From: an uncultured Anaerolineales bacterium
GTDB lineage: Bacteria; Chloroflexota; Anaerolineae; Anaerolineales; UBA11858
Direction of reading: 5' to 3'
Length of the DNA stretch: 64,000 nucleotides
Assembly (NCBI GenBank): GCA_964603385.1
Contig: CAZRUS010000012.1
Span: forward strand, 3,738-67,737
Part shown: positions 3,367 through 38,918 of the stretch, piece after piece
Position numbering within the stretch: position 1 is the first letter of the stretch
How the letters are laid out: each line of letters begins with the position of its first letter
Made by a program: the position numbers and the translations under genes
Notes under the pieces: generated by a model
The model's database searches: none
Seen by the model: the letters and a program-made list of their open reading frames with translations, nothing else
What the model was told of the DNA's origin: nothing

Positions 3367-3960
3367 TCAGGGCATCTGAGCGGGATAGGCGGTGAGATCC
3401 AGCTGCAGGGGGGTGGTGGATACATAACCAGCTGCCAGTGCTCCGATATCCGGTCCATCCTGAGGAATCCCGGAGGGAGCGTCTCCGCTGATCCAGTAAT
3501 AATCGTTGCCGCGCGGGTCAGGGCGCTGGTAGTCAATGACATCGGGATGGATCTTTTCCAATCTCAGGGATAAGGCGATGCCGGGGACCCCGTTGATGAT
3601 GGCTTCCATCGCGGCAGTCACGGTCCCTGAGTAGGTTACATCATGGCCGAAGTTAGGCAGAGGGTTGATTCCGGAGACCACCAGATCAAAGGTGACGCCG
3701 AAATATCCCAGCAGACCCAGGGCAACACAGTCAGAGGGGGCTCCGTCACTGGCATAGGCTGTGGTATGATTTTCCAGGAAGACTTTGCGGACCCGCAGCG
3801 GGCGGTTTATGGATTTGACATGTATGATGGCCGACCAGTTGCGGTCGGGAGCCAGAATGGACACCTGACCGAGATTCTGGATTTCCTGGGCTAAAGCTAA
3901 CAGACCGGGTGCAGTTACTCCGTCGTCATTGGTCACTAGAATATGTGGTCTCGTGAGCAA
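3367..3960 (-). CDS. surE: 5'/3'-nucleotidase SurE (short variant)
   Basis: N-terminal ILVTNDDG motif and GINPLPNFGHDVTYSGTVTAAMEA core. At 197 aa it is about 50 aa shorter than canonical SurE. Confidence 0.8.
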   Translation of the reverse strand: MLTRPHILVTNDDGVTAPGLLALAQEIQNLGQVSILAPDRNWSAIIHVKSINRPLRVRKVFLENHTTAYASDGAPSDCVALGLLGYFGVTFDLVVSGINPLPNFGHDVTYSGTVTAAMEAIINGVPGIALSLRLEKIHPDVIDYQRPDPRGNDYYWISGDAPSGIPQDGPDIGALAAGYVSTTPLQLDLTAYPAQMP

Positions 3961-14480: not shown

Positions 14481-15146
14481 ATGAAAGAGCGCTATTTTAA
14501 AACGGAGACAATGGGCGCAGCTGCCCAATCCTGGAAGGAAAACATTTACCGGAGCCTTCGGGGACCCCGCCTCAGCCTGGAGATCAGCCGGGCTGCACTT
14601 CTTGTTTTGGATCTGCAGGCCTATTTTTTAGAGCCGGATTCTCACGCTTATATTCCCAGCGCACCGCTTATCCTGTCCTCGCTGAATAGACTCATTACCG
14701 GGATGCGGGGCTGTCAGCGGCCGGTGTTCCTTTCACAGCATATCAACACACCTCAAAACGCGGGAATGATGTCGACATGGTGGCGGGATTTGATCCGGGA
14801 GGATCATCCTCGCAGCGGATTTGCCGCCGGTCTGGCAGCTGCGGAAGGAAAGATTCTACAAAAAACCCAATATGATGCCTTTTACGAAACGGATCTGGAG
14901 GAGACCCTCAAAGAAGCGGGTGTGAGTCAGCTGATTATCACCGGTGTGATGACACATCTGTGCTGTGAAACCACTGCCCGGTCTGCGTTCATACGGGGAT
15001 TTGAGGTATTTTTTCCTGCGGATGGCACAGCAACCTACAACCAGGAGCTGCATTTAGCCACCCTGAAAACGCTGGCGCATGGGTTTGCGGATATAATCAC
15101 CTGCGGTGAGGTGCTGCAGGCGATCGACCGGATATGTGAGGGCTGA
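14481..15146 (+). CDS. isochorismatase-family cysteine hydrolase
   Basis: LLVLDLQAYF and GVMTHLCCETTARSA motifs. ATG at 14481 chosen; the upstream part of the track ORF looks non-coding. Confidence 0.75.
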   Translation: MKERYFKTETMGAAAQSWKENIYRSLRGPRLSLEISRAALLVLDLQAYFLEPDSHAYIPSAPLILSSLNRLITGMRGCQRPVFLSQHINTPQNAGMMSTWWRDLIREDHPRSGFAAGLAAAEGKILQKTQYDAFYETDLEETLKEAGVSQLIITGVMTHLCCETTARSAFIRGFEVFFPADGTATYNQELHLATLKTLAHGFADIITCGEVLQAIDRICEG

Positions 15147-16024
15147 TGATTGAGGTAGCGGTGATTGGAGCGGGACCTGCAGGGCTGGCGGCAGCCATGC
15201 AGCTGACCAGGCAGGGAATGGACTGTCTTGTCTTTGAGGCCGATGTGCCCGGTGGTCTGCTTCACAATGCCAATCTCGTTGAGAACTACCCCGGCTTCCC
15301 CGGAGGAATTCCTGGTCCCCGGCTGGCTGCTCTCTTTCAGGAACAGGCTGAGCAGCTGGGGGTGAGGATCAACCGGCGGCAGGTCAGGAACCTTACCTGG
15401 CAGGATCAGGCGTTTTTACTCACCACGGATAAGGGGGTTCGCCATGCGGAAAAAACGGTTGTCGCCACCGGAACCAGGGCTGTTCCTTTCCAGGATGTTC
15501 CTGTTAGCTCTCAGGCGGCCGAGAGAATATTCACGGAAGTGGTCGAACTCTCTGGGGTGAAAGGAAAAAGGATTCTTATCATCGGCGCCGGGGATGCGGC
15601 TTTCGATTATGCGCTCAATCTCTCCCGGGAAAATCAGGTAACAATCCTCAACCGGAGCGGCAGGATCTTGGCGCTGGATTTGCTCCAACAGCGGGTAAAA
15701 TTCCACAGCAGCATCAAATATCACGCTGACACAATCGTCAAGCAGATCGCTGTAGGTGGACCTGGAGATCTACTGGTAAGTGTTCACAAGCCGACCGGTG
15801 AAGAGGTAATGTCGGCTGATTATCTGCTCACTGCAATTGGCCGGGTCCCGGCTGATGAGTTTATCGATCCAACCCTTCTGGATCCTCCAGCAGCAGGGAT
15901 CCCGGCAGGCAGCCTGTTCTTCGTTGGGGATATCCGCAGCGGACGTTTCCGGCAGACAGCCATGGCTGTGGGGGACGGTGTCCGAGCAGCGATGGAAATC
16001 TATTTCAGGAAGGAGAAAGAGTGA
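15146..16024 (+). CDS. thioredoxin-reductase-like FAD/NAD(P)-binding flavoprotein lacking the CxxC redox centre
   Basis: VIGAGPAGLAAA and ILIIGAGDAAFDYA dinucleotide folds. No Cys pair where TrxB has CATCDG. ATGA overlap with the upstream gene. Confidence 0.7.
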   Translation: MIEVAVIGAGPAGLAAAMQLTRQGMDCLVFEADVPGGLLHNANLVENYPGFPGGIPGPRLAALFQEQAEQLGVRINRRQVRNLTWQDQAFLLTTDKGVRHAEKTVVATGTRAVPFQDVPVSSQAAERIFTEVVELSGVKGKRILIIGAGDAAFDYALNLSRENQVTILNRSGRILALDLLQQRVKFHSSIKYHADTIVKQIAVGGPGDLLVSVHKPTGEEVMSADYLLTAIGRVPADEFIDPTLLDPPAAGIPAGSLFFVGDIRSGRFRQTAMAVGDGVRAAMEIYFRKEKE

Positions 16025-23320: not shown

Positions 23321-24487
23321 GTGAATGACTGGCCGATGAATAACAAATCAACAGGGTTCCAGCGAAGATGGAACTCTATCCTATCAGCAGTATTTCTGCT
23401 GGCGGTATTCGGCGGTTGGGGAGCTGTTCAGCCTGCCGGAGCTTCTGACCCGGTTGTCCGGGCGGTTCTGTTTTACTCTCCACAGTGTCCTCACTGTCAG
23501 ATGGTCCGGGAGACTGTGCTGACGGAATTGGAAGGAAAGTATGGGGGAAGCTTCCAGCTGCTGGAGATTGACACCAGCACCGATGCGGTCGAATTCTATT
23601 TTTCAGCGGTGGAGTTCTTGGATATTCCTCCTGAAAAGCAGGGAGTCCCCACTATCATCATCGGTGAGGAAATATTGGTTGGAAGTCATGAAATCCCGGA
23701 ATATCTTCCCGAATTGGTAGCAGAGGGACTGGATGCGGGTGGAATTGATTGGCCTGATATCCCCGGCATTGAGGAATACCTGCCCTCAGCCGCTCTTCCT
23801 CAGGTAACAGCACCTGCGTCTCTCCCGCCGGTAGCAGCGGAGACCGGGCCGGATAGCACACAGGAAACACCGGAAATCACTCCCGGGAATAGGCCACCAG
23901 AGGAACTACAGCCGGGGTTGCAGGAAACCATAACGACCCGATATCGCAGGGATTTTGTTGGCAACACTTTATCCGTTCTTGTTCTGGTGGGTATGCTGGC
24001 TGTCCTGCTGGCGTCCGGCACCCGGCTGTTCAAGCCTGATCCCAACCGGCAGCGCTGGCCGGCCTGGGTGATCCCCCTCCTCTCCGCCGCAGGGCTGGCA
24101 GTTGCCGGGTACCTTTCTTTTGTAGAAGTGACCCAGGCAGAAGCAGTCTGCGGCCCGGTCGGAGACTGCAACACGGTGCAGCAAAGTCCCTACGCTGTGC
24201 TGTTTGGATTCCTGCCCGTGGGGGTATTTGGCCTGCTGGGGTATATAGCCATCTTGGCAGCCTGGTTGATCTATCGGTTCAGCTCCGGTTGGGTGCAGGA
24301 GTATGCCGGTCAGGGGCTGTGGATGATGACTTTTTTTGGTCTGCTCTTTTCCATCTACCTGACCTTTTTAGAGCCCTTTGTCATTGGGGCCACCTGCGCC
24401 TGGTGCTTGAGCTCGGCTGTGATCATCACCGTCCAGCATCTCGCTGCTACCAGTCTGGTGGAATCCAGCTGGGCAGAATCAGCCTAA
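23321..24487 (+). CDS. thioredoxin-like (CPHC) domain fused to a vitamin K epoxide reductase (VKOR) membrane domain
   Basis: Signal anchor, SPQCPHCQ, a Pro/Glu-rich linker, then VKOR loop cysteines CGPVGDC and active-site CAWC within TM helices. Confidence 0.8.
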   Translation: MNDWPMNNKSTGFQRRWNSILSAVFLLAVFGGWGAVQPAGASDPVVRAVLFYSPQCPHCQMVRETVLTELEGKYGGSFQLLEIDTSTDAVEFYFSAVEFLDIPPEKQGVPTIIIGEEILVGSHEIPEYLPELVAEGLDAGGIDWPDIPGIEEYLPSAALPQVTAPASLPPVAAETGPDSTQETPEITPGNRPPEELQPGLQETITTRYRRDFVGNTLSVLVLVGMLAVLLASGTRLFKPDPNRQRWPAWVIPLLSAAGLAVAGYLSFVEVTQAEAVCGPVGDCNTVQQSPYAVLFGFLPVGVFGLLGYIAILAAWLIYRFSSGWVQEYAGQGLWMMTFFGLLFSIYLTFLEPFVIGATCAWCLSSAVIITVQHLAATSLVESSWAESA

Positions 24488-24803: not shown

Positions 24804-25292
24804 TCAATCCAGCTGAATGCCCAGGTCTTCCAGGATATAGCCGACAACCAGCGGGATGGCTGCGGCAACGGCCGGTGTGGGGGATTCGTTGAATTCCAGA
24901 ATGTTTTCTACTTCTACAGCGTAGATAATAAATTCTTCCGGGATCTGATAGCCGAGATGTTCAGCTGCATCCAGAGCGGTGATCAGGGAAGTATCATGGG
25001 CGCTGGTGCTGTGCTGGGTAGGACTGCGCATGCGGAGATCTGCCAGGGTCAGCCGGTGGATCCTGCCGGGTTGGGTCTCTTGCTCTTTCAGGTAATAGGC
25101 ATCCACCAGAATGACCCGGTCAAAGCCCAGCATCGTCTCCATCAGACGGAGTCCACCCACGCTGGCCTCGGTGATGGTCAGCTCGGGGTGAGCCTTGAGG
25201 TCGATGATTTCTTCCAGGCGGTAAGCTACCTTGACGCCTACGCCGTCATCGGTCAGGATGGGATTGCCCAATCCGATAATGATTGTTTTCAT
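24804..25292 (-). CDS. [NiFe]-hydrogenase maturation endopeptidase (HycI/HoxW/FrhD family)
   Basis: MKTIIIGLGNPILTDDGVGVKV N-terminus. ATG at 25292 is preceded by GAAGGTAG. Confidence 0.85.
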   Translation of the reverse strand: MKTIIIGLGNPILTDDGVGVKVAYRLEEIIDLKAHPELTITEASVGGLRLMETMLGFDRVILVDAYYLKEQETQPGRIHRLTLADLRMRSPTQHSTSAHDTSLITALDAAEHLGYQIPEEFIIYAVEVENILEFNESPTPAVAAAIPLVVGYILEDLGIQLD

Positions 25293-25308
25293 AGCTACCT
25301 TCAAACAA

Positions 25309-25382: not shown

Positions 25383-26870
25383 TCAGTCGATATACTGGGT
25401 CAGGGTTTCCAGCAGATTCCCTTCGGCATCCTTGATTTCGAGTTCCAGCGGCATCTGTCCGGGCAGGGAGTGGGTGGCGCAGGACATGCAGGGGTCATAA
25501 TTCCTGAAGGCCATTTCCACTTGATTGAGCAGTCCCTGATTGACTTCCCCGTTCTTGATCAGCCCCTGAGCGGCTTTCTTGATCGACATGGCGATGGGAG
25601 CGTTGTTGTTTGTGGTTCCCACGACCATGTTGACGTCGGTGAGGATGCCATTTTCATCCGTTTTGTAGTGGTGGGTAAGCGTCCCCCTGGGGGCTTCCAC
25701 GCTGCCAACGCCTTCAGTGGGGGTATTGGTGACCACCTGGCGGACGTTTTGATCCATGATTTCGTCGTCTTCGACCAGCTCTACCATGCGCTCGGCGGCG
25801 TAGAGCAGTTCGATCAGGCGGGCCCAGTGGGTGGCCAGACGGTGGTGCACCGGCTGGTAGCGTCCATTGGTTTTTTCTGAGCCCAGCGTTTCGTAGAATT
25901 TTTCGAAAGCTTCCTGGGCTTTGGGGGTAGCCATCCCATCGGCGGCGTTGAGCCGGGAAAGCGGGGTGGCGCAGTAAACGCCGCTGTCCTTTCCGTCCAC
26001 GAAACCCTTCCAGCCAACATCTTTCAGGTAGGGGAACTTCAGGTAGGACCAGGGCTCCACCCGCTCAGCAATGTGATCAGCATAGTCTCTGGCCGGGTAC
26101 TTGGTCAGCTCCTTGCCGTCAGGCCCGACCACCCGGATCATACCGTCATAAAAGTTGGTCTTGTTTTCATCATCGACGGTGCCCATGTAATAGGTTTCAT
26201 GGGTGAAAGCGTCGGAGACGATCAGATCAACATAGTCCTGATTGCCGAGCACGACATCATCAAAGAGCTCCAGGCTGAAGAGGCCAAATTCAACGTTTTG
26301 TTGAGAAAACTGGCGGATTTGCTCGCGTTCTTCCTCGGTCATGGCCTTGCTCCAGCCGCCGGGAAGACCGGCAACAGGATGGATGCCGCGGCCGCCCAGC
26401 ATCTGGATAATTTCATGGTTGCGTTTTCGGCATTGAATCACCTTCTGACCAATTTCCAGACCGACCTTGTGGATCACGCCCAGGATATTGCGCTCTGCCG
26501 GGTCGGCATCCGGGCCGATGACAAAGTCTGGTCCGCCCAGCGCATAGAAATGGACCGTGTGGTCTGTGACGTAAAACGCCGAATAAAACAATTCCCGGAG
26601 TTTCTTGACTGCGGAGGAAGGTTCGACGTCGAAAAGTTCATCCAACGCCTTGGTAGCCGCCATGTGGTGAGCTTCCGGGCAGACTCCGCAGATCCGGTTG
26701 GTGATGCGGGGCATTTCCTCAGCTGGACGTCCGATGGAAAACTGCTCAAAACCGCGCAGCTCAGGAATCTGCAGGTAAGCGTTGGCCACATTTCCTTCCT
26801 CATTGAGGAAAATTTCTATTTTGCCGTGACCTTCCAGTCTGGTGATGGGATCAATCGTTATTCGTTCCAT
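25383..26870 (-). CDS. mvhA: [NiFe]-hydrogenase large subunit, group 3c (MvhA-like)
   Basis: N-terminal RICGVCPEAHH and C-terminal DPCMSCATH Ni-Fe ligand motifs. Confidence 0.9.
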   Translation of the reverse strand: MERITIDPITRLEGHGKIEIFLNEEGNVANAYLQIPELRGFEQFSIGRPAEEMPRITNRICGVCPEAHHMAATKALDELFDVEPSSAVKKLRELFYSAFYVTDHTVHFYALGGPDFVIGPDADPAERNILGVIHKVGLEIGQKVIQCRKRNHEIIQMLGGRGIHPVAGLPGGWSKAMTEEEREQIRQFSQQNVEFGLFSLELFDDVVLGNQDYVDLIVSDAFTHETYYMGTVDDENKTNFYDGMIRVVGPDGKELTKYPARDYADHIAERVEPWSYLKFPYLKDVGWKGFVDGKDSGVYCATPLSRLNAADGMATPKAQEAFEKFYETLGSEKTNGRYQPVHHRLATHWARLIELLYAAERMVELVEDDEIMDQNVRQVVTNTPTEGVGSVEAPRGTLTHHYKTDENGILTDVNMVVGTTNNNAPIAMSIKKAAQGLIKNGEVNQGLLNQVEMAFRNYDPCMSCATHSLPGQMPLELEIKDAEGNLLETLTQYID

Positions 26871-27889
26871 TAGGCAGCTCCTTTTCCGTTCTTCACCCGC
26901 TGGAGGATGGAGTGGGACATGCTGAAGCGATAGAAGGTGCCAGACGGATCTGCAATGGTGTCTACAGCTTCCTGGATGATTTCCTCCAGTTTGTCTTCAT
27001 CCATGGTTTCATTGCCAGCGTCTATGACGGAAGCAATTGCCGAGAGCATTTTTGCGCCCTGATCCTCGACATCATCCGTGGGACCGTAGCAGCCCCGGCA
27101 GCCCATCCCCACGGTGGGGCAGAGGGCTCCGCAGCCTGCGCGGGTGGCGATCCCCATACAGAGGATGCCCTGTTCTAAGAGACACTGATCTGGATCGGGA
27201 TCAATTTCATAAGGGCGGTAAAAACGCTCAATTTTCTTTTCATTCTTGGTACGGCCGCATTCTTCACAAACGGCAACGGTGCCCGCGCCAAGGATGGATC
27301 CTGCCGGGGGCAGGGGCTTCCCCTCCGTCAGCGCCCCGACCACGACCTGCAGCACCGCCCAGATCTGAGGCGGTTCCGGAGGACACCCGGGCAGGTAGTA
27401 GTCAACATCGACCACCTGGTCCAGGGCTTTCACTGTGTGATAAAACTCGGGCAGGGTGAGCTCCCCTTCCGGCATATGAACCGAAGTCTGGGGCATGATC
27501 TGGTCCGGGTTTTCGATGGAGGGGTTGTTCTGATAGACTTTATCCAGGGTGGCTTCCCGGGTGGTCAGATTGGACAGCGCGGGAATGCATCCTTCATAGG
27601 AGCAGGAGCCGTAGGCCACCATCACCTTGGATTTCTGGCGCAGCAAATGCGCCATGTGTTCATTTTCGGAGTTGCGGATGGCGCCGTTGAAAAGACAGAC
27701 ATCAATGTGTCCGTCTGGGTAGCCTTCCACATCCTTGACTTTGAAATCGGCGATGCAGGGGAAGAAAGCGATATCAAACGCCTCATCGACAGCGAGAATG
27801 TTCTCGTGAATATTCAGAACAGAGATCTCACATCCCCCACAGGACGAAGCCCAATACATAGCCAGTTTGGGTTTTCCATTCTCACTCAT
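26870..27889 (-). CDS. mvhG: [NiFe]-hydrogenase small subunit (MvhG-like)
   Basis: WASSCGGCEISVLN proximal-cluster motif and multiple distal Cys clusters. TAATG overlap with mvhA. Confidence 0.85.
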   Translation of the reverse strand: MSENGKPKLAMYWASSCGGCEISVLNIHENILAVDEAFDIAFFPCIADFKVKDVEGYPDGHIDVCLFNGAIRNSENEHMAHLLRQKSKVMVAYGSCSYEGCIPALSNLTTREATLDKVYQNNPSIENPDQIMPQTSVHMPEGELTLPEFYHTVKALDQVVDVDYYLPGCPPEPPQIWAVLQVVVGALTEGKPLPPAGSILGAGTVAVCEECGRTKNEKKIERFYRPYEIDPDPDQCLLEQGILCMGIATRAGCGALCPTVGMGCRGCYGPTDDVEDQGAKMLSAIASVIDAGNETMDEDKLEEIIQEAVDTIADPSGTFYRFSMSHSILQRVKNGKGAA

Positions 27890-28351
27890 TTAGGCCTCCT
27901 TGACAGCTTTGAGGGCTGCACCATTCCCGCTCAGAACCTTTTCTGACCAGCGCAGCGGTCCCAGAGCGCGGACTTCTTCGGTCATGCGATCCACCGCAGC
28001 GGCCAGTTTATTGCCTTCCGAGGCGGAGGCCCACAGCAGCTGTACGCGTTGATCTTCGATCCCCCATTGGTTGAGGGTATTTTTCAGCAATGAAAATCGC
28101 CGCAGTGCCTTGATGTTCCCATTGACGTAGTGGCACTCGCCGGGGTGGCATCCAGCGATCAAAACTCCGTCCGCGCCGTGGCGGAGGGCTTTGAGCACAA
28201 ACTGTGGATCCACCCGTCCCGAACACATCACCCGCACCGGGCGCATGTTGGGAGCATATTTGATCCGGGAAGTCCCGGCAAGATCGGCGGCACGATAGGA
28301 GCACCAGTTGCACAAAAACCCGACGATCACAGGTTCAAATTGTTCAGTCAT
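27890..28351 (-). CDS. mvhD: methyl-viologen-reducing hydrogenase delta subunit (MvhD/FlpD)
   Basis: VGFLCNWCSYRAADLAG and IAGCHPGECHY motifs. Confidence 0.9.
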   Translation of the reverse strand: MTEQFEPVIVGFLCNWCSYRAADLAGTSRIKYAPNMRPVRVMCSGRVDPQFVLKALRHGADGVLIAGCHPGECHYVNGNIKALRRFSLLKNTLNQWGIEDQRVQLLWASASEGNKLAAAVDRMTEEVRALGPLRWSEKVLSGNGAALKAVKEA

Positions 28352-28363
28352 TATATCCTCCCG

Positions 28364-30391
28364 CTAGGCGGTTGCCTTTTCTGGTTCCGGCTGCACATCC
28401 CAGAGAATGCCCTTCAGTTCGGACATCACCTGGGTGTTGGTGAAGTGGGCTCCGTCGATGGCTCCGCTCGGGCAGGCCGCCACGCAGGTGCCGCAGCCCA
28501 TGCACAGAGCGGTGATCACTTGGGAGACTTCTTTTTCCTCATTGAACTCGATGGCATTGTAGGGGCAGAGGTTATTGCAGATCTTGCAGCCGGAGCAGTC
28601 CTCTTCGCGGATGCTGGCCCGGATGGGCTCCATCATTACCGTCCCCTGGCCAATCAGTTTGGCCACCTGTGAGGCAGCAGCCCCACCCTGGGCGACGGTC
28701 TCCGGAATGTCCTTGGGGCCCTGGCAGGCGCCGGCAATGAAAATGCCGTCCGTCATGGTAGCGACGGGGGCCAGCTTGGGGTGGCGCTCACTGAAGAAGC
28801 CGTCAAAGTCACATCCCAGTTTGAAGAGATTGGAAAGCTCTTCCGCGTCATGGCGGGGTTCGATACCCGCGCTGAGGATAACCATATCCACCGGCAGGCG
28901 CTGCTGCTTACCGAGCAGGGTGTTTTCGTACTGCACGGCGAGCCGGCCTTGTTCATCCTCTGCGTAATCCGCGTCGGTGATCTCCGCCACTCTGCCGCGG
29001 ATCATGTGGGTGCCTTCGTTCAGCAGGCGGTGATAAAACTCTTCATATCCCTTTCCGGGGGTGCGCATATCAATATAGAAGTTGTAAACTTCAGCTTCGG
29101 GGACATGCTCGTGCACCAGGTGAGCGAACTTCAGCGAATACATACAGCAGACTTTGGAGCAGTATTCGTTGTAGTTCTTGTCCCGAGAACCCACACAGTG
29201 AACGATGGCGATGCGTTCCGGTACGGTTTCTCCATCCCGGAGGACGACGTGTCCCTCGGTAGGACCGGAAGCGTTGACCATGCGTTCGAACTCCAGGCTG
29301 TCGAAGACATTTTCCAGCCGACCATAACCGTACTGGGGGATCCGTCGGGCATCAAAGAGATCGTAGCCGGTGGCGATGATGATGTTGCCCACAGTGATTT
29401 GCAGGATCTCATCTTCCTGCTCAAAATCGATGGCATCGGTGGGACAGAACTTCTCACAGGCCCGGCATTTTCCGGTCTGGAAATAAATGCAGTTTTCCTT
29501 ATCCAGCACTGGGTAGCCGGGGACTGCCTGGGGGAAAGCCCGGTAAACAGCTTTCCGGTAGCCCAGCCCGGCGCCGTAGTCATCATCAATGACCTTGACC
29601 GGGCATTTCTCTTCACAAATGCCGCAGGAAGTGCAGGCTACTTCATCCACACAGCGCGCTTTCTTGCGCACCTTGATCTGGAAGTTGCCGATGTAGCCTT
29701 CCACTTCTTCCACCTCACTGTAGGTCAGCAGTGTGATGTTGTCATGCTGTCCAGCTTCGACCATTTTCGGCGTAAGAATACAGGCCGAGCAGTCCAGGGT
29801 GGGGAAGGTCTTGTCAATCTGGGCCATATGCCCGCCGATGGTGCCTTCTCTTTCCACCAGGTAAACATGGTGACCGGCATCAGCCAGGTCCAGTGCGGCG
29901 GTGATTCCGGCAATGCCCCCGCCGACGATCAGCGTATTGGGATCGATTTCCACGGGGATTTTTTCCAGAGCATCGTGGTGGACAACCCGTTCCACGGCTC
30001 CGTTGACCAGCGCCTTTGCCTTTTGAGTAGCTGCTTGTTTGTCATTGGTCGCCCAGGAACCATGCTCGCGGATGTTGGCCATTTCATACAGGTAGGGATT
30101 CAAGCCGCCGCGCTCCGTTGCTTCCCGAAAGGTTTTTTCATGCATGTGCGGCGAGCAGGAGGCGACCACCACACGGGTCAGGCCGAGTTCCTTGATGTCC
30201 TTCTCAATCATTTCCTGACCGGTGCTGGAGCACATAAACTCATAATCGCGGGAAACGGCCACATTGGGATTATCCTCGGCCCATTTAGCGACCTCTTTGA
30301 CGTCAATCGTACCAGCGATGTTGGACCCACAGTGACAGACGTAAACGCCAACTTTTTCTTGCTGTGCAGGGGTTTTTTTGGAATCGGTCAT
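28364..30391 (-). CDS. hdrA: heterodisulfide reductase subunit A-like FAD/FeS protein
   Basis: VYVCHCGSNIAG, FAD fold VGGGIAGITAALDLA, VHCVGSRD and several ferredoxin-type CxxCxxCxxxCP motifs. Confidence 0.9.
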   Translation of the reverse strand: MTDSKKTPAQQEKVGVYVCHCGSNIAGTIDVKEVAKWAEDNPNVAVSRDYEFMCSSTGQEMIEKDIKELGLTRVVVASCSPHMHEKTFREATERGGLNPYLYEMANIREHGSWATNDKQAATQKAKALVNGAVERVVHHDALEKIPVEIDPNTLIVGGGIAGITAALDLADAGHHVYLVEREGTIGGHMAQIDKTFPTLDCSACILTPKMVEAGQHDNITLLTYSEVEEVEGYIGNFQIKVRKKARCVDEVACTSCGICEEKCPVKVIDDDYGAGLGYRKAVYRAFPQAVPGYPVLDKENCIYFQTGKCRACEKFCPTDAIDFEQEDEILQITVGNIIIATGYDLFDARRIPQYGYGRLENVFDSLEFERMVNASGPTEGHVVLRDGETVPERIAIVHCVGSRDKNYNEYCSKVCCMYSLKFAHLVHEHVPEAEVYNFYIDMRTPGKGYEEFYHRLLNEGTHMIRGRVAEITDADYAEDEQGRLAVQYENTLLGKQQRLPVDMVILSAGIEPRHDAEELSNLFKLGCDFDGFFSERHPKLAPVATMTDGIFIAGACQGPKDIPETVAQGGAAASQVAKLIGQGTVMMEPIRASIREEDCSGCKICNNLCPYNAIEFNEEKEVSQVITALCMGCGTCVAACPSGAIDGAHFTNTQVMSELKGILWDVQPEPEKATA

Positions 30392-30397
30392 TGGTTT

Positions 30398-31360
30398 TTA
30401 TCCCTCCTCCGTCATAACAGGCATGGGAAGGCCGGTTGATTTCTTAACTCTTCTGCGCCGCTTCTTCTGGGGAGGTTCCTCAGTGACCTTGGACAGAGCG
30501 GATTTGGCTGAGACGATCTCCTTCCCAAATCCCAGCTGGTTCGCGGGGATGCCAAAAGCCAGGCCCATCAGCTGGGTGAAGTAAACCACCGGAATGTTGT
30601 AATCTGTTCCGTAGCGGGCATTGACCGCATCCTGGTAGGCATCCAGATTCAGCTGGCACATCGGGCACAGGGTGGCAATCATATCTGCCCCGTAGTCATC
30701 GGCGTTCTTAATCAGACGCCGGATCATCTCCAGGGCGGTTTCCTCACTGATCTGGGTCATATGTCCGCCGCAGCACTGGGCTTTGAGCGGAAATTCGACT
30801 ACAACAGCGCCCAACTTTTCAAATAGAACGTCCATGGATAAGGGATGTTCTGGATCGTCAAAGCTGGCCATCGAAGCCGGTCGGGGTACCATACAGCCGT
30901 AATAAGGCGCGATCCGCAGGTTGTAGAGCGGTTTTTGAATTTGTTCCTCAATCTTATCGTACCCGACATCCTTGACAATGATCTCCAGCAGATGTTTGAC
31001 GTCAACACTGCCCGGTTGGTAGCTCATTCCTCCCGCTTCCAGCGCCTGATCGATTTTTTGGCGCAGCGGTTGGGATTCTTCCAGGGAATGGTCGGTCTTC
31101 AGCAGGTTGATGTAGCAGGCGCTGCAGGGAGCAACCAATTTTTCACTGTCATTCTGCTGGGCGGCCAGGGCCAGGTTGCGGCTGACCAGAGCATAGGCTG
31201 GAACCTGATTGAGGGCGAAATATTCTGTCGCCCCGCAGCAGTTCCAATCTTCCAGCTCCTGGAATTCCACGTCCAGTTTCTCTGCCACGGCCATGGTGGA
31301 GTCGTGGTAGGAGCGGGCATTGCGCTCCAGAGAGCAGCCGGGGTAATATCCGTATTTCAT
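30398..31360 (-). CDS. hdrB: heterodisulfide reductase subunit B-like (two CCG domains)
   Basis: YYPGCSL, WNCCGATEY and AQCCGGHM motifs. Confidence 0.9.
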   Translation of the reverse strand: MKYGYYPGCSLERNARSYHDSTMAVAEKLDVEFQELEDWNCCGATEYFALNQVPAYALVSRNLALAAQQNDSEKLVAPCSACYINLLKTDHSLEESQPLRQKIDQALEAGGMSYQPGSVDVKHLLEIIVKDVGYDKIEEQIQKPLYNLRIAPYYGCMVPRPASMASFDDPEHPLSMDVLFEKLGAVVVEFPLKAQCCGGHMTQISEETALEMIRRLIKNADDYGADMIATLCPMCQLNLDAYQDAVNARYGTDYNIPVVYFTQLMGLAFGIPANQLGFGKEIVSAKSALSKVTEEPPQKKRRRRVKKSTGLPMPVMTEEG

Positions 31361-31941
31361 ACTTCACCTCCAAGCTCTTTGGCTTTAGCGAGGATTGCCT
31401 TAAGCTGGGAAATGTTCTTGATCCTGGGAGGAAGCAGATCCATCCGTCCCCGGGTGAACATTTTCAGCCCCATCCCTGTTGCCATCTTGAAGGCATCCAC
31501 CGGGTGGTAACGCAGATGGTAGCGGGTGGCCAGGCCCAGCTCAAAGCTGCGGCCGTTGTTTTCCACGAAATCAATAAAGGTCTCAGAGAATTCCGGCGCC
31601 TTGTCTTTGCCGGCTTTCTGATAGTGGCCTTCTTTGATCGCCAACCGCTTCAGCGCGTACATGATATCGGTGATGTGAATATCCTGCGGACAGCGGACCA
31701 TGCAGTAGTAGCAGGATACACAGTACCAGGGGGTGTTGCTTTGCAGTACATCCTCTCTCAGCCCCGCGTCGATCATTGCAAACAGGGTTCTCGGTGTATG
31801 GTCCATATCCGGTCCGGAAGGGCAGGACCCACCGCAGGTGCCGCACTGCAGACAGGTTTTTAAAGCCCCGCCGAGACCCGTTGTTTCTGCGACGACCTCA
31901 TCATAGAATGTGGGGGCGCGAGCAGACAGGGTTTCATTCAT
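31357..31941 (-). CDS. hdrC: heterodisulfide reductase subunit C-like (2x[4Fe-4S])
   Basis: CLQCGTCGGSCP and CVSCYYCMVRCP. ATG at 31941 is preceded by GAGGAGG. Confidence 0.85.
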   Translation of the reverse strand: MNETLSARAPTFYDEVVAETTGLGGALKTCLQCGTCGGSCPSGPDMDHTPRTLFAMIDAGLREDVLQSNTPWYCVSCYYCMVRCPQDIHITDIMYALKRLAIKEGHYQKAGKDKAPEFSETFIDFVENNGRSFELGLATRYHLRYHPVDAFKMATGMGLKMFTRGRMDLLPPRIKNISQLKAILAKAKELGGEV

Positions 31942-32065
31942 AACAGCCTCCTCAACAAGGGATGTCATCTGTAGTTCAATCCGTATGAGTTCAAGTGAGA
32001 ATTTCCCTACTGAAAGCTTGATCTAGGTTCGCTCAGAAAGTATAGTCAAGCTGAATTTCAGCCAC

Positions 32066-37272: not shown

Positions 37273-37300
37273 TCTGAAAAATGGCTGTCACTGAGAAAGC

Positions 37301-37335
37301 AAAATCCCTGTCCGGATTTTTCAGACAGGGATTTT
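37301..37335. terminator. bidirectional intrinsic terminator between the convergent SH3b and HesB-like genes
   Basis: 12-bp stem AAAATCCCTGTC / GACAGGGATTTT flanked by A-run and T-run. Confidence 0.6.
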
Positions 37336-37354: not shown

Positions 37355-37711
37355 TCAGCCGCAGCCACCGGCTGAGGGGTCGCAGCCTGAACAGCCGGAA
37401 AAGGCTGTCTGCGCTTTTTCCTGCTGGATTTGAAAACCACTGCGTCCACTTTCATTGACGAAGGCAATGGTTGCTTTCTGCAGGTAAGCCATTGTGCGAT
37501 CATCCACGATGATCGCTACGTCATGACTGGTAAACTGGAGATCATTATCTCTGAGCTGATCGTCCAGGGTCATGCCGTACTGAGGGCCGCTTCAACCAAC
37601 CCCGGCGATATACACGCGTAGGGAATGACCTTCCAGGTCCTGCTCTTTGAGCAGATCCTGAACTGCTACAGCCGCTTCGGGGGTAAGGGAGATTTGTTCT
37701 GTGTTTTCCAT
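37355..37711 (-). CDS. IscA/HesB-like Fe-S assembly protein with an in-frame TGA (probable selenocysteine) at 37592-37594
   Basis: My own translation: MENTEQISLTPEAAVAVQDLLKEQDLEGHSLRVYIAGVG[TGA]SGPQYGMTLDD...SGCSGCDPSAGGCG. The TGA aligns with the Cys of the IscA GGGCSGFQY motif. AGGTGG lies 3 nt before the ATG at 37711. The track reports only the 72-aa C-terminal part. Confidence 0.6.
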
Positions 37712-37752
37712 ATCCACCTATCAGAGTCTAAAAATAATCGGAACCTGGAATG

Positions 37753-37780
37753 ATTTTAACAGGCTCAGCCTGGTTGTCAA
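37753..37780 (-). promoter_or_regulatory. near-consensus promoter TTGACA-N16-TAAAAT upstream of the HesB-like gene
   Basis: Minus-strand reading: -35 at 37775-37780 and -10 at 37753-37758, about 40 nt before the ATG at 37711. Confidence 0.45.
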
Positions 37781-38051
37781 CGGATAAACATGGAAATATT
37801 ACATATATCTTATACCAGGGAGAGCCCTCTCCGTCCCGCTTCCCCGGGGCGGGAGCATATGCAGCCCTCAATCTGACGCTGGGTAAGGGAGTGCAGCACC
37901 CGCAGGCTGTTAATCCTCTGATCATCCTGCCCGGGTCGCTCTGATTGACTCTCCAACAGACAGAATTGAGGTACTCGATGGGGGATACAGAGATCCTCCG
38001 CTGTTATAATTTCTATTGCTAACAGGGATTATGAATATCAAGGTGGTGAGG

Positions 38052-38918
38052 ATGGACAGCAGGGAAGATCAGCGGGTCCTTTTATCGGTTTTAGCACATC
38101 CGGATGATGAGTCTTTTGGGATGGGGGGGACGCTGGCCAAGTACGCCCGCCAGGGGGTGGAGGTGCATCTGATCTGCGCCACCCGCGGAGAAGTCGGGGA
38201 AGTGCCACCAGAATTTCTCGAAGAAGGAGTCCCCGTGCCGGAGCTGCGGGAAAGAGAACTGATGTGTGCTGCTGAAGAACTGGGCATCAGTCAGGTTCAT
38301 TTTCTTGATTACCGGGATTCAGGCATGCCGGGAAACCCCGAGAATGATCATCCCCAGGCGCTGGTGAATGCCCCAATTGAAGAAGTTGCCGGGAAAGTGC
38401 TGCAGATAATTCGGGACATCCAACCCCAGGTAGTGCTGACCTTTGATCCGATCGGGGGATATTATCATCCTGACCATATCGCCATCCATCAAGCTGCAAA
38501 AGAGGCATTTTTTCTAGCTAGAGGTGGAGGGGATAATCAAGCGGTCGAATCCAGTGTTCCCCAAAGGCTGTACTATCATACCATTCCCAAGCATTTCATC
38601 CGCTTCAACGTTCGACTGCTGCGCTTTTTGGGCAAGGATCCCAGCAGGTGGGGGAAAAACCAGGATATTGACCTGACAGAACTGGCGGAAAAGACCTTTC
38701 CTGTACATGCCAGCATAGCCTATGGGGAGGTGAGAAAACAGAAGGCAGCTGCCGCTTCCTGTCATGCCAGCCAGGGAGGGGCGGGGCTGATTGGCGGCTT
38801 TTGGCGGATGATCTTCCGTCTGTTTGGTTCCCGGTATGAGGATCAATTTATGAGAGCCTACCCGGATCCAGAGGATGGTGAGCTGGAAAAGGATTTATTT
38901 GCCAATCTCTCCATTTGA
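38052..38918 (+). CDS. PIG-L/LmbE-family N-acetylglucosaminyl deacetylase (low-molecular-weight-thiol or glycolipid pathway type)
   Basis: LAHPDDESFGMGGTLAKY, and HPDH later in the sequence. ATG at 38052 follows GGTGGTGAGG. Confidence 0.75.
   Translation: MDSREDQRVLLSVLAHPDDESFGMGGTLAKYARQGVEVHLICATRGEVGEVPPEFLEEGVPVPELRERELMCAAEELGISQVHFLDYRDSGMPGNPENDHPQALVNAPIEEVAGKVLQIIRDIQPQVVLTFDPIGGYYHPDHIAIHQAAKEAFFLARGGGDNQAVESSVPQRLYYHTIPKHFIRFNVRLLRFLGKDPSRWGKNQDIDLTELAEKTFPVHASIAYGEVRKQKAAAASCHASQGGAGLIGGFWRMIFRLFGSRYEDQFMRAYPDPEDGELEKDLFANLSI

Follow-up and report, generated by a model that had tools for sequence, protein, structure and literature searches.

Two open reading frames joined by an in-frame TGA codon

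We analysed a 64,000-nucleotide (nt) stretch of DNA from an uncultured Anaerolineales bacterium (GenBank assembly GCA_964603385.1, contig CAZRUS010000012.1, positions 3,738 to 67,737; hereafter the window), in which a gene resembling those for A-type iron-sulfur (Fe-S) cluster carriers of the IscA/HesB/ErpA group is interrupted by an in-frame TGA codon. The original prediction, made from the letters of the window, had proposed that this gene encodes a HesB-like selenoprotein missed by open reading frame (ORF) calling, with selenocysteine (Sec, U) at the TGA. On the minus strand, 39 sense codons beginning with the ATG at 37711-37709 lead to the in-frame TGA at 37594-37592, which is followed by codons for SGPQYG and, beyond them, by a Met codon at 37573 (Met47), from which the frame continues to a TGA stop at 37357-37355. 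The full recoded coding sequence (37355-37711) thus comprises 118 codons plus the stop, reads MENTEQISLTPEAAVAVQDLLKEQDLEGHSLRVYIAGVG-U-SGPQYGMTLDDQL...FSGCSGCDPSAGGCG, and places the putative Sec at codon 40 (U40) within ...RVYIAGVG-U-SGPQYGMTLDD.... In the list of ORFs the gene appears as two separate pieces, an upstream ORF of 41 amino acids (aa; 37592-37717) and a downstream ORF of 72 aa (37355-37573), which starts at Met47 and uses the same stop. All of the coordinates first given for the ATG, the TGA, the downstream ORF and the 118-codon joined product were reproduced; the spacing between AGGTGG (37719-37714) and the ATG is 2 nt, however, rather than the 3 nt originally claimed.

The joined product is an A-type carrier homologue

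Profile searches were run with Cys substituted for U at the TGA codon. The product of the window scored 73.9 bits against TIGR00049 (cutoff 58.8), over residues 7-107, and five other members of the group of orthologues described below scored 74-81 bits. Similarly, the alignment to PF01521 that had been suggested as a check of the joined product gave 42.6 bits (cutoff 26.3), with matches across both halves. The best matches in the PDB were HI1723 (2APN) and Aquifex IscA (1NWB), both spanning residues 7-108, along with E. coli IscA and SufA. In the alignments to HI1723 and Aquifex IscA the TGA position falls exactly on the Cys of GGGCSGFQYG. Among equivalog-type models the best match was to the ErpA model NF010147, with 77 bits (below its cutoff of 117), and the cutoffs of the IscA and SufA equivalogs were likewise not reached.

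At the position of the HesB ligand Cys the window encodes U-S-G-P and its orthologues U-G-G-P, both of which fit U-x-G-P, the motif that a 2026 review (PMC13188914, Table 1) gives for HesB-like selenoproteins. At its other end the protein carries a Cys-rich tail, SGCSGCDPSAGGCG (37358-37399, minus strand), with Cys residues at positions 107, 110 and 117. The tail motif, GC[AS]GCDPxxGCG, is maintained throughout the group of TGA-containing orthologues and was aligned by HMMER to the CGCG of 2APN and 1NWB. It provides C-x-x-C plus a terminal Cys in place of the C-G-C ligand motif of A-type carriers, and may take part in cluster binding.

A conserved TGA codon that is translated through

A protein search returned one apparently full-length relative together with several fragments of 71-72 aa, and the DNA of every one of them carries TGA at the same codon. 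Scans of genome and metagenome collections with an alignment raised the number of orthologous loci to 73, representing 61 distinct DNA versions, from more than 20 species-representative metagenome-assembled genomes (MAGs) labelled Anaerolineales, Chloroflexota or 'Chloroflexia' and from about 45 metagenome contigs. Indeed, TGA occupies this codon in 73 of 73 loci and 61 of 61 versions (AGVG-TGA-GGPQYGM), well beyond what chance would produce, with no switch to TGC, TGT or TGG among the 61 sequences of a clade that spans down to about 55% protein identity. By comparison, all 23 of the more distant homologues recovered (at most 46% identity) have TGC or TGT there, and neighbour-joining groups the 57 distinct TGA proteins into a single clade with no Cys form within it. 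These counts, the Cys-type outgroups and the alignment to known structures support the proposal that the TGA stands at the first ligand-Cys position of a gene that ORF calling had missed.

The sequence on both sides of the TGA varies synonymously; the Gly codon at -3, for example, uses all four possibilities. In pairwise comparisons of the 61 orthologues, 94% of the codon differences were synonymous within the six SGPQYG linker codons (37574-37591, minus strand) that separate the TGA from the Met used by gene callers as a start, versus 57-59% in the flanks. The linker is therefore translated. Together, the conservation of the TGA and this synonymous pattern cannot be reconciled with a spacer that is not translated, with a pseudogene or with an error of assembly, in agreement with the argument of the original prediction that the gene is expressed and recoded rather than decayed. 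It had also been proposed to ask whether orthologues start at the downstream Met with no conservation upstream; profile matches and selection extend over both halves, and a start at that Met alone is not borne out.

The public gene calls that we examined are either fragments of 71-72 aa, some of them named 'IscA', or a mistranslation containing Trp. The latter is a 'full-length' orthologue of 117 aa in ENA and Logan (P0001, P0022; locus L005, 442-444) with Trp at the TGA, which was evidently translated under another table by a gene caller working on a short contig. In one related contig (L043, JACZKY010034916.1) an extra in-frame TAA occurs at codon +8 after the TGA (GGPQYGM-TAA-LDD), and is either a sequencing error or the mark of a decayed copy. 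Two other loci, L068 and L070, have TTG (Leu) at codon +7, where the callers otherwise find the Met that starts the fragment.

A conserved RNA element lies downstream of the UGA codon

We examined the RNA around the UGA with positions numbered relative to its U. Entropy and codon randomisation delimit a zone of suppressed synonymous variation from about nt -6 to +95 (37499-37600, minus strand). From the TGA to about codon +31 the normalised synonymous entropy is 0.27-0.47, as compared to 0.8-0.87 upstream (codons -34 to -14) and 0.6-0.84 downstream. When synonymous codons were randomised with the protein kept, the native segment +12 to +99 was more stable than its randomised counterparts by a mean z of -4.6 (window, -5.3), with 61 of 61 sequences below -2, whereas a 69-nt control region (-60 to +9) gave z -0.7 under the same randomisation.

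Within this zone, pair probabilities and pair counts over the 61 sequences define a long irregular hairpin from +15 to +77 (37517-37579, minus strand), which is a candidate selenocysteine insertion sequence (SECIS). Its basal helix, in which UACG.CAUG faces CAUG.CGUA, joins +15-18 to +74-77 and +20-23 to +69-72 on either side of a conserved mismatch, G.G or G.A, with a mean pair probability of about 0.9 averaged over the 61 sequences. Distal helices form at +27-30/+64-67 and +38-44/+49-54, and the hairpin of the window additionally pairs CUGGA with UCCAG and GAUCA with UGAUC. In total, 95.5% of the cells in the pair count are paired, versus 21-50% when the partners are slid, and eight pairs vary on both sides, versus 3.7 +/- 1.1 in shuffles (0 of 500). 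The frozen third positions in UAC, GGC, CAU, GGC and GUA coincide exactly with the pairing partners. A second hairpin, GCGAUCAUC GUG GAUGAUCGC in the window (37496-37516, minus strand), follows with seven conserved pairs (+80-86/+90-96); 99.5% of its cells are paired, two of its pairs show compensatory changes from G-C to A-U, and it is found independently by RNAalifold.

The Cys-type relatives lack these features. Seven or eight of the eight basal pairs are formed in 58 of 61 TGA sequences, as compared to a mean of 4.6 of 8 in the 23 Cys homologues, and Cys homologues with the same YGM...HGV amino-acid motifs have a minimum free energy (MFE) over +12 to +80 of -16.7 kcal/mol, versus -24.3 kcal/mol in the TGA clade. 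The RNA element after the UGA is thus conserved, specific to the TGA clade, marked by compensatory changes and absent from Cys relatives. Short-range folding alone is uninformative, since over the 45 nt that follow the UGA the Sec and Cys forms fold equally well (MFE -9.5 and -9.7 kcal/mol, respectively); a dinucleotide shuffle of 81 nt of the window gave z -0.39. The weak SECIS candidate first proposed at 37537-37565 occupies the middle of the long hairpin and belongs to a conserved structure of far greater extent.

Two further structures were considered in this region. A mini-hairpin at +11 to +30, whose GGCAU loop at +18-22 resembles the loop of the FdhA element, was rejected; it reaches about -4 kcal/mol and is 86% paired, with no covariation beyond that of shuffles. 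RNAalifold favours a possible helix between -6 to +3 and +27 to +35 that includes the UGA itself (37591-37600 with 37559-37567 in the window, minus strand, where GUUGGUUGAG pairs with CUGGAUGAC). This helix is 98% paired across 52 sequences, through conservation with no compensatory change, and would account for the frozen third positions of GUU, GGU, GAU and GAC. In combination with the long hairpin's basal helix it would give rise to a pseudoknot, or else represent an alternative conformer.

Selenocysteine is decoded in the Anaerolineales

To look for a further selenoprotein in the MAGs with the TGA-containing gene, 80 loci anchored on hdrA and 80 anchored on fdhA were fetched, and the related loci came to about 2.6 Mb in total. 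FdhA has a TGA at the catalytic Sec140 site (CARL-TGA-HSATV), followed by a canonical SECIS, in at least 12 MAGs of the Chloroflexota, the majority of which bear an Anaerolineales or Anaerolineae label; one of the carriers is a complete Anaerolineales chromosome. The presence of TGA at the Sec site of FdhA implies that the order decodes Sec. Indeed, Sec-containing formate dehydrogenases and SelB, the elongation factor specific for Sec, have been reported in Anaerolineales single-cell genomes (PMC4959059).

The Sec-FdhA loci are L179/L206, L195, L201, L202, L204, L207, L208, L213, L216, L222, L227 and L259, with the TGA at, for example, 7-9 of L195 and 9998-10000 of L213, and several of them adjoin hdrA. 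In L179 (4163-6366), which comes from a long-read-derived MAG, FdhA matches occur in three frames, which suggests assembly indel errors. Weak SelD-like tblastn matches near hdrA (L163, 21360-21722; L156, 20777-21139) were identified as HypE, the L156 copy of which is complete and ends in PRIC.

Gene neighbourhood and other features of the window

A sigma-70-like promoter (TTGACA-N16-TAAAAT, 37753-37780, minus strand) precedes the gene, matching the consensus at 11 of 12 positions, with TG ahead of the -10 element; the evidence for it is this match to the consensus. Downstream of the stop (37293-37335, minus strand), folding identifies an intrinsic-terminator-like hairpin of 13 bp (about 37302-37334) followed by the U-rich UUUUGCUUUC. 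The hairpin has an energy of -26.1 kcal/mol (z = -5.4), which none of 200 shuffles equalled, and a simple terminator scan misses it solely because of the 3-8 nt loop rule of that scan. The near-consensus promoter and strong terminator of the original prediction were therefore both recovered.

The divergent neighbour (38016-38918, plus strand) encodes a PIG-L family deacetylase, which is most like MshB, Mca and BshB and scores below their cutoffs. These three are enzymes of low-molecular-weight-thiol synthesis. The gene order PIG-L / TGA-containing IscA / SH3_3 protein is maintained in orthologous loci L001, L003 and L004. On the minus strand, 5.4 kb from the TGA gene, lies an hdrC-hdrB-hdrA-mvhD-mvhG-mvhA operon (25383-31968), accompanied by a gene for a hydrogenase maturation protease (24804-25304, minus strand). 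HdrA and MvhD are selenoproteins in some anaerobes; the operon of the window is all of the Cys form, with HdrA and MvhD as uninterrupted ORFs without an in-frame TGA. The deacetylase and the hdr-mvh operon provide hints to function and are no test of it.

Elsewhere in the window, a thioredoxin-reductase-like flavoprotein (15146-16024, plus strand) and a VKOR-family-domain protein (23321-24487, plus strand), both below equivalog cutoffs, relate to thiol-redox chemistry, with no link to the TGA gene established. In a 197-aa ORF at 3367-3960 (minus strand), the best SurE stretch spans only about the N-terminal 135 of about 250 profile positions, and most models report a second stretch as well; this ORF may be truncated or frameshifted. 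When the window was scanned for further ORFs joined across a TGA, or for a TGA with a canonical SECIS behind it, out-of-frame noise alone was returned.

Selenocysteine and other explanations of the UGA codon

In this gene a UGA codon is conserved, is translated through, is homologous to a ligand Cys and is followed by a clade-specific RNA structure. We therefore consider it very probable that the gene encodes an A-type Fe-S carrier selenoprotein with Sec at the first ligand-Cys position. This is the most economical reading because the UGA is strictly conserved, the site is that of a metal or redox Cys, an RNA structure is present and Sec is decoded in the order. In addition, further lineages within this fold family are known to use Sec at this position (PMC1794560, PMC13188914). 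The HesB-like selenoprotein first put forward is thus supported by the conserved TGA, purifying selection, structural alignment, the RNA element and Sec-FdhA in the order.

From these data we infer the identity of the inserted residue, the binding of SelB to the RNA structure and a biochemical role. The product would be a 118-residue carrier of the IscA/HesB/ErpA fold, in which Sec40 takes the place of the first cluster-ligand Cys. As the ribosome arrives at the UGA, the structured mRNA from 12 nt downstream would act as a SECIS, consisting of the 63-nt hairpin and the second hairpin of 7-9 bp, and would recruit SelB-GTP-Sec-tRNA(Sec), upon which Sec would be inserted and translation would go on to the stop. 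By homology, Sec40 and Cys107-x-x-Cys110, possibly with Cys117, may bind iron or an Fe-S cluster and pass it on, or else may operate a selenenylsulfide cycle.

Several observations weigh against this interpretation. In the 64-kb window no selA, selB, selD or tRNA-Sec was detected, either by ARAGORN, which found no tRNA at all, or by NCBIfam models applied to the 40 larger ORFs, and likewise none was detected in the 2.6 Mb of related loci by tblastn with E. coli SelA, SelB and SelD or by ARAGORN. Moreover, no MAG with Sec-FdhA in our sample is among the MAGs carrying the TGA-containing IscA gene. The two curated models of Sec-containing HesB proteins do not claim the clade: against TIGR01911 (cutoff 66.35) the window protein scored 42.1 bits and five other members 43.6-49.0, and against NF038090 (cutoff 85) the values were 55.7 and 51.9-66.6, all of them below. 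TIGR01911, named in the original prediction as the known family, is thus right as to the Sec-at-Cys motif U-x-G-P and wrong as to membership at its cutoff. The RNA element is similarly atypical. Its apical loop (12 nt in the window, G first) is 35 nt away from the UGA in the window, and in most orthologues the distance is 39-42 nt, as against a bSECIS consensus range of 16-37 nt, and an Rfam search at gathering and permissive thresholds gave no match. Our own implementation of the bSECIS consensus passed 55 of 61 real sequences, but also 37 of 61 randomised controls and 13 of 22 Cys homologues, and therefore carries no weight as evidence. Finally, the 63-nt irregular hairpin with its G.G/A mismatch, the second hairpin and the possible UGA helix are unlike the compact FdhA element.

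The same departures from a canonical SECIS, together with the lack of Sec machinery alongside the gene in the loci searched, could be taken to mean that the UGA is read through without Sec, in which case a near-cognate or suppressor tRNA would insert a residue such as Trp or Cys, and read-through would be stimulated by the RNA structure. The Trp of the public 117-aa call might seem to point the same way, though it merely reflects the translation table used. We regard read-through of this kind as improbable: a one-base change to TGC or TGT, or to TGG, would let Cys or Trp be inserted efficiently and is absent from all 61 distinct sequences, the site is a ligand Cys that becomes Sec in other lineages of the family, and the order decodes Sec in FdhA. 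A split gene is an explanation of another kind, in which a 39-residue peptide ends at the TGA and a separate protein of 72 residues is begun at Met47, perhaps by re-initiation. The fragments of 71-72 aa in the public gene calls have just this form, and the ATG at codon +7 is present in 60 of 61 sequences. That Met belongs, however, to a GM motif found family-wide, Cys homologues included, and is replaced by Leu in L068 and L070; no Shine-Dalgarno-like sequence lies ahead of the ATG at 37573; the six codons before it are under strong protein-level purifying selection, unlike an untranslated spacer; and the IscA fold, like the profile matches, takes in both halves. A split gene is accordingly highly unlikely.

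That the window has one in-frame stop, and that contig L043 has its additional TAA, might suggest a pseudogene or a single-base error of sequencing or assembly. The same TGA recurs, however, in 73 loci whose sequences stem from independent samples and assemblers, within a frame that is intact and rich in excess synonymous change on both sides and that retains its promoter and terminator, such that decay or error is scarcely credible. We assign as little weight to a variant genetic code (table 4 or 25) that reads TGA as sense, which would fit the ENA gene call of the L005 orthologue, made with such a table. TGA is the commonest stop in the window, closing 30 of 57 long ORFs, this gene included, and the genes for conserved proteins such as HdrA, transketolase, Obg and MreB have normal lengths and close with TGA or TAA. 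TGA thus serves as a regular stop here, and the code has not been reassigned.

If the gene is indeed an A-type carrier selenoprotein, a more specific proposal is that the segment of about 95 nt after the UGA represents a distinct class of bacterial SECIS, or in part regulates Sec insertion, and that, with its Sec and CxxC ligands, the protein belongs to a functionally distinct selenoprotein subfamily. We offer this tentatively and think it possible, though on balance doubtful. Such a class would consist of the long hairpin based at +15 with its conserved purine-purine mismatch, the second hairpin and the alternative helix, which would sequester the UGA. It would require the single SelB of an Anaerolineales cell to recognise two very different architectures, whereas a regulatory structure could, for example, occlude the UGA until the ribosome unwinds the helix.

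Significance and comparison with known systems

Knowledge of HesB-like selenoproteins goes back two decades, and the present finding extends a known pattern without overturning current understanding. What is new is a well-populated Anaerolineales clade outside both curated Sec models; beyond annotation, the unusual RNA element might be the only part of specialist interest. If confirmed, the clade would add a widespread, mis-annotated selenoprotein to the Anaerolineales, which are abundant in sediments and digesters, and would mean that the two Sec-HesB models do not cover every lineage of Sec-bearing A-type carriers. Confirmation would also mean that one order naturally contains two very different Sec-insertion elements, those of FdhA and of this gene, for the study of SelB recognition, and would supply a clear instance in which to ask why selenium would serve as an Fe-S cluster ligand.

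Among known systems, TIGR01911 (HesB_rel_seleno; Deltaproteobacteria, Clostridia, Symbiobacterium and Methanococcus) resembles the Anaerolineales clade in its fold family, in Sec at the first ligand Cys and in U-x-G-P. It differs in lineage, and its profile of 92 positions ceases to match at about residue 95-96, short of the C-terminal CxxC...C tail. NF038090 (IscA_HesB_Se; 'IscA/HesB family protein' in NCBIfam) is similar in length and shares the IscA/HesB architecture, with residues 8-108 of the window protein aligned to positions 3-100 of 101; an annotation pipeline that relies on its cutoff would presumably leave this protein unnamed. The Cys-type ErpA, IscA and SufA carriers (TIGR00049; 2APN, 1NWB, 1S98/1R94, 2D2A) align with the protein from end to end, the differences being Sec for the first Cys and C-[AS]-G-C plus a terminal Cys for C-G-C. 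At the RNA level, the canonical SECIS of E. coli fdhF and of Anaerolineales FdhA shares with the element described here a start at +15, a location within the coding sequence and a G that opens the apical loop or lies close to its beginning. In the Anaerolineales FdhA element a 6-bp stem (GUCGCC/GGCGAC) runs from +15 and closes a loop of sequence GGUCU, which occupies +21-25 and lies 18 nt beyond the UGA.

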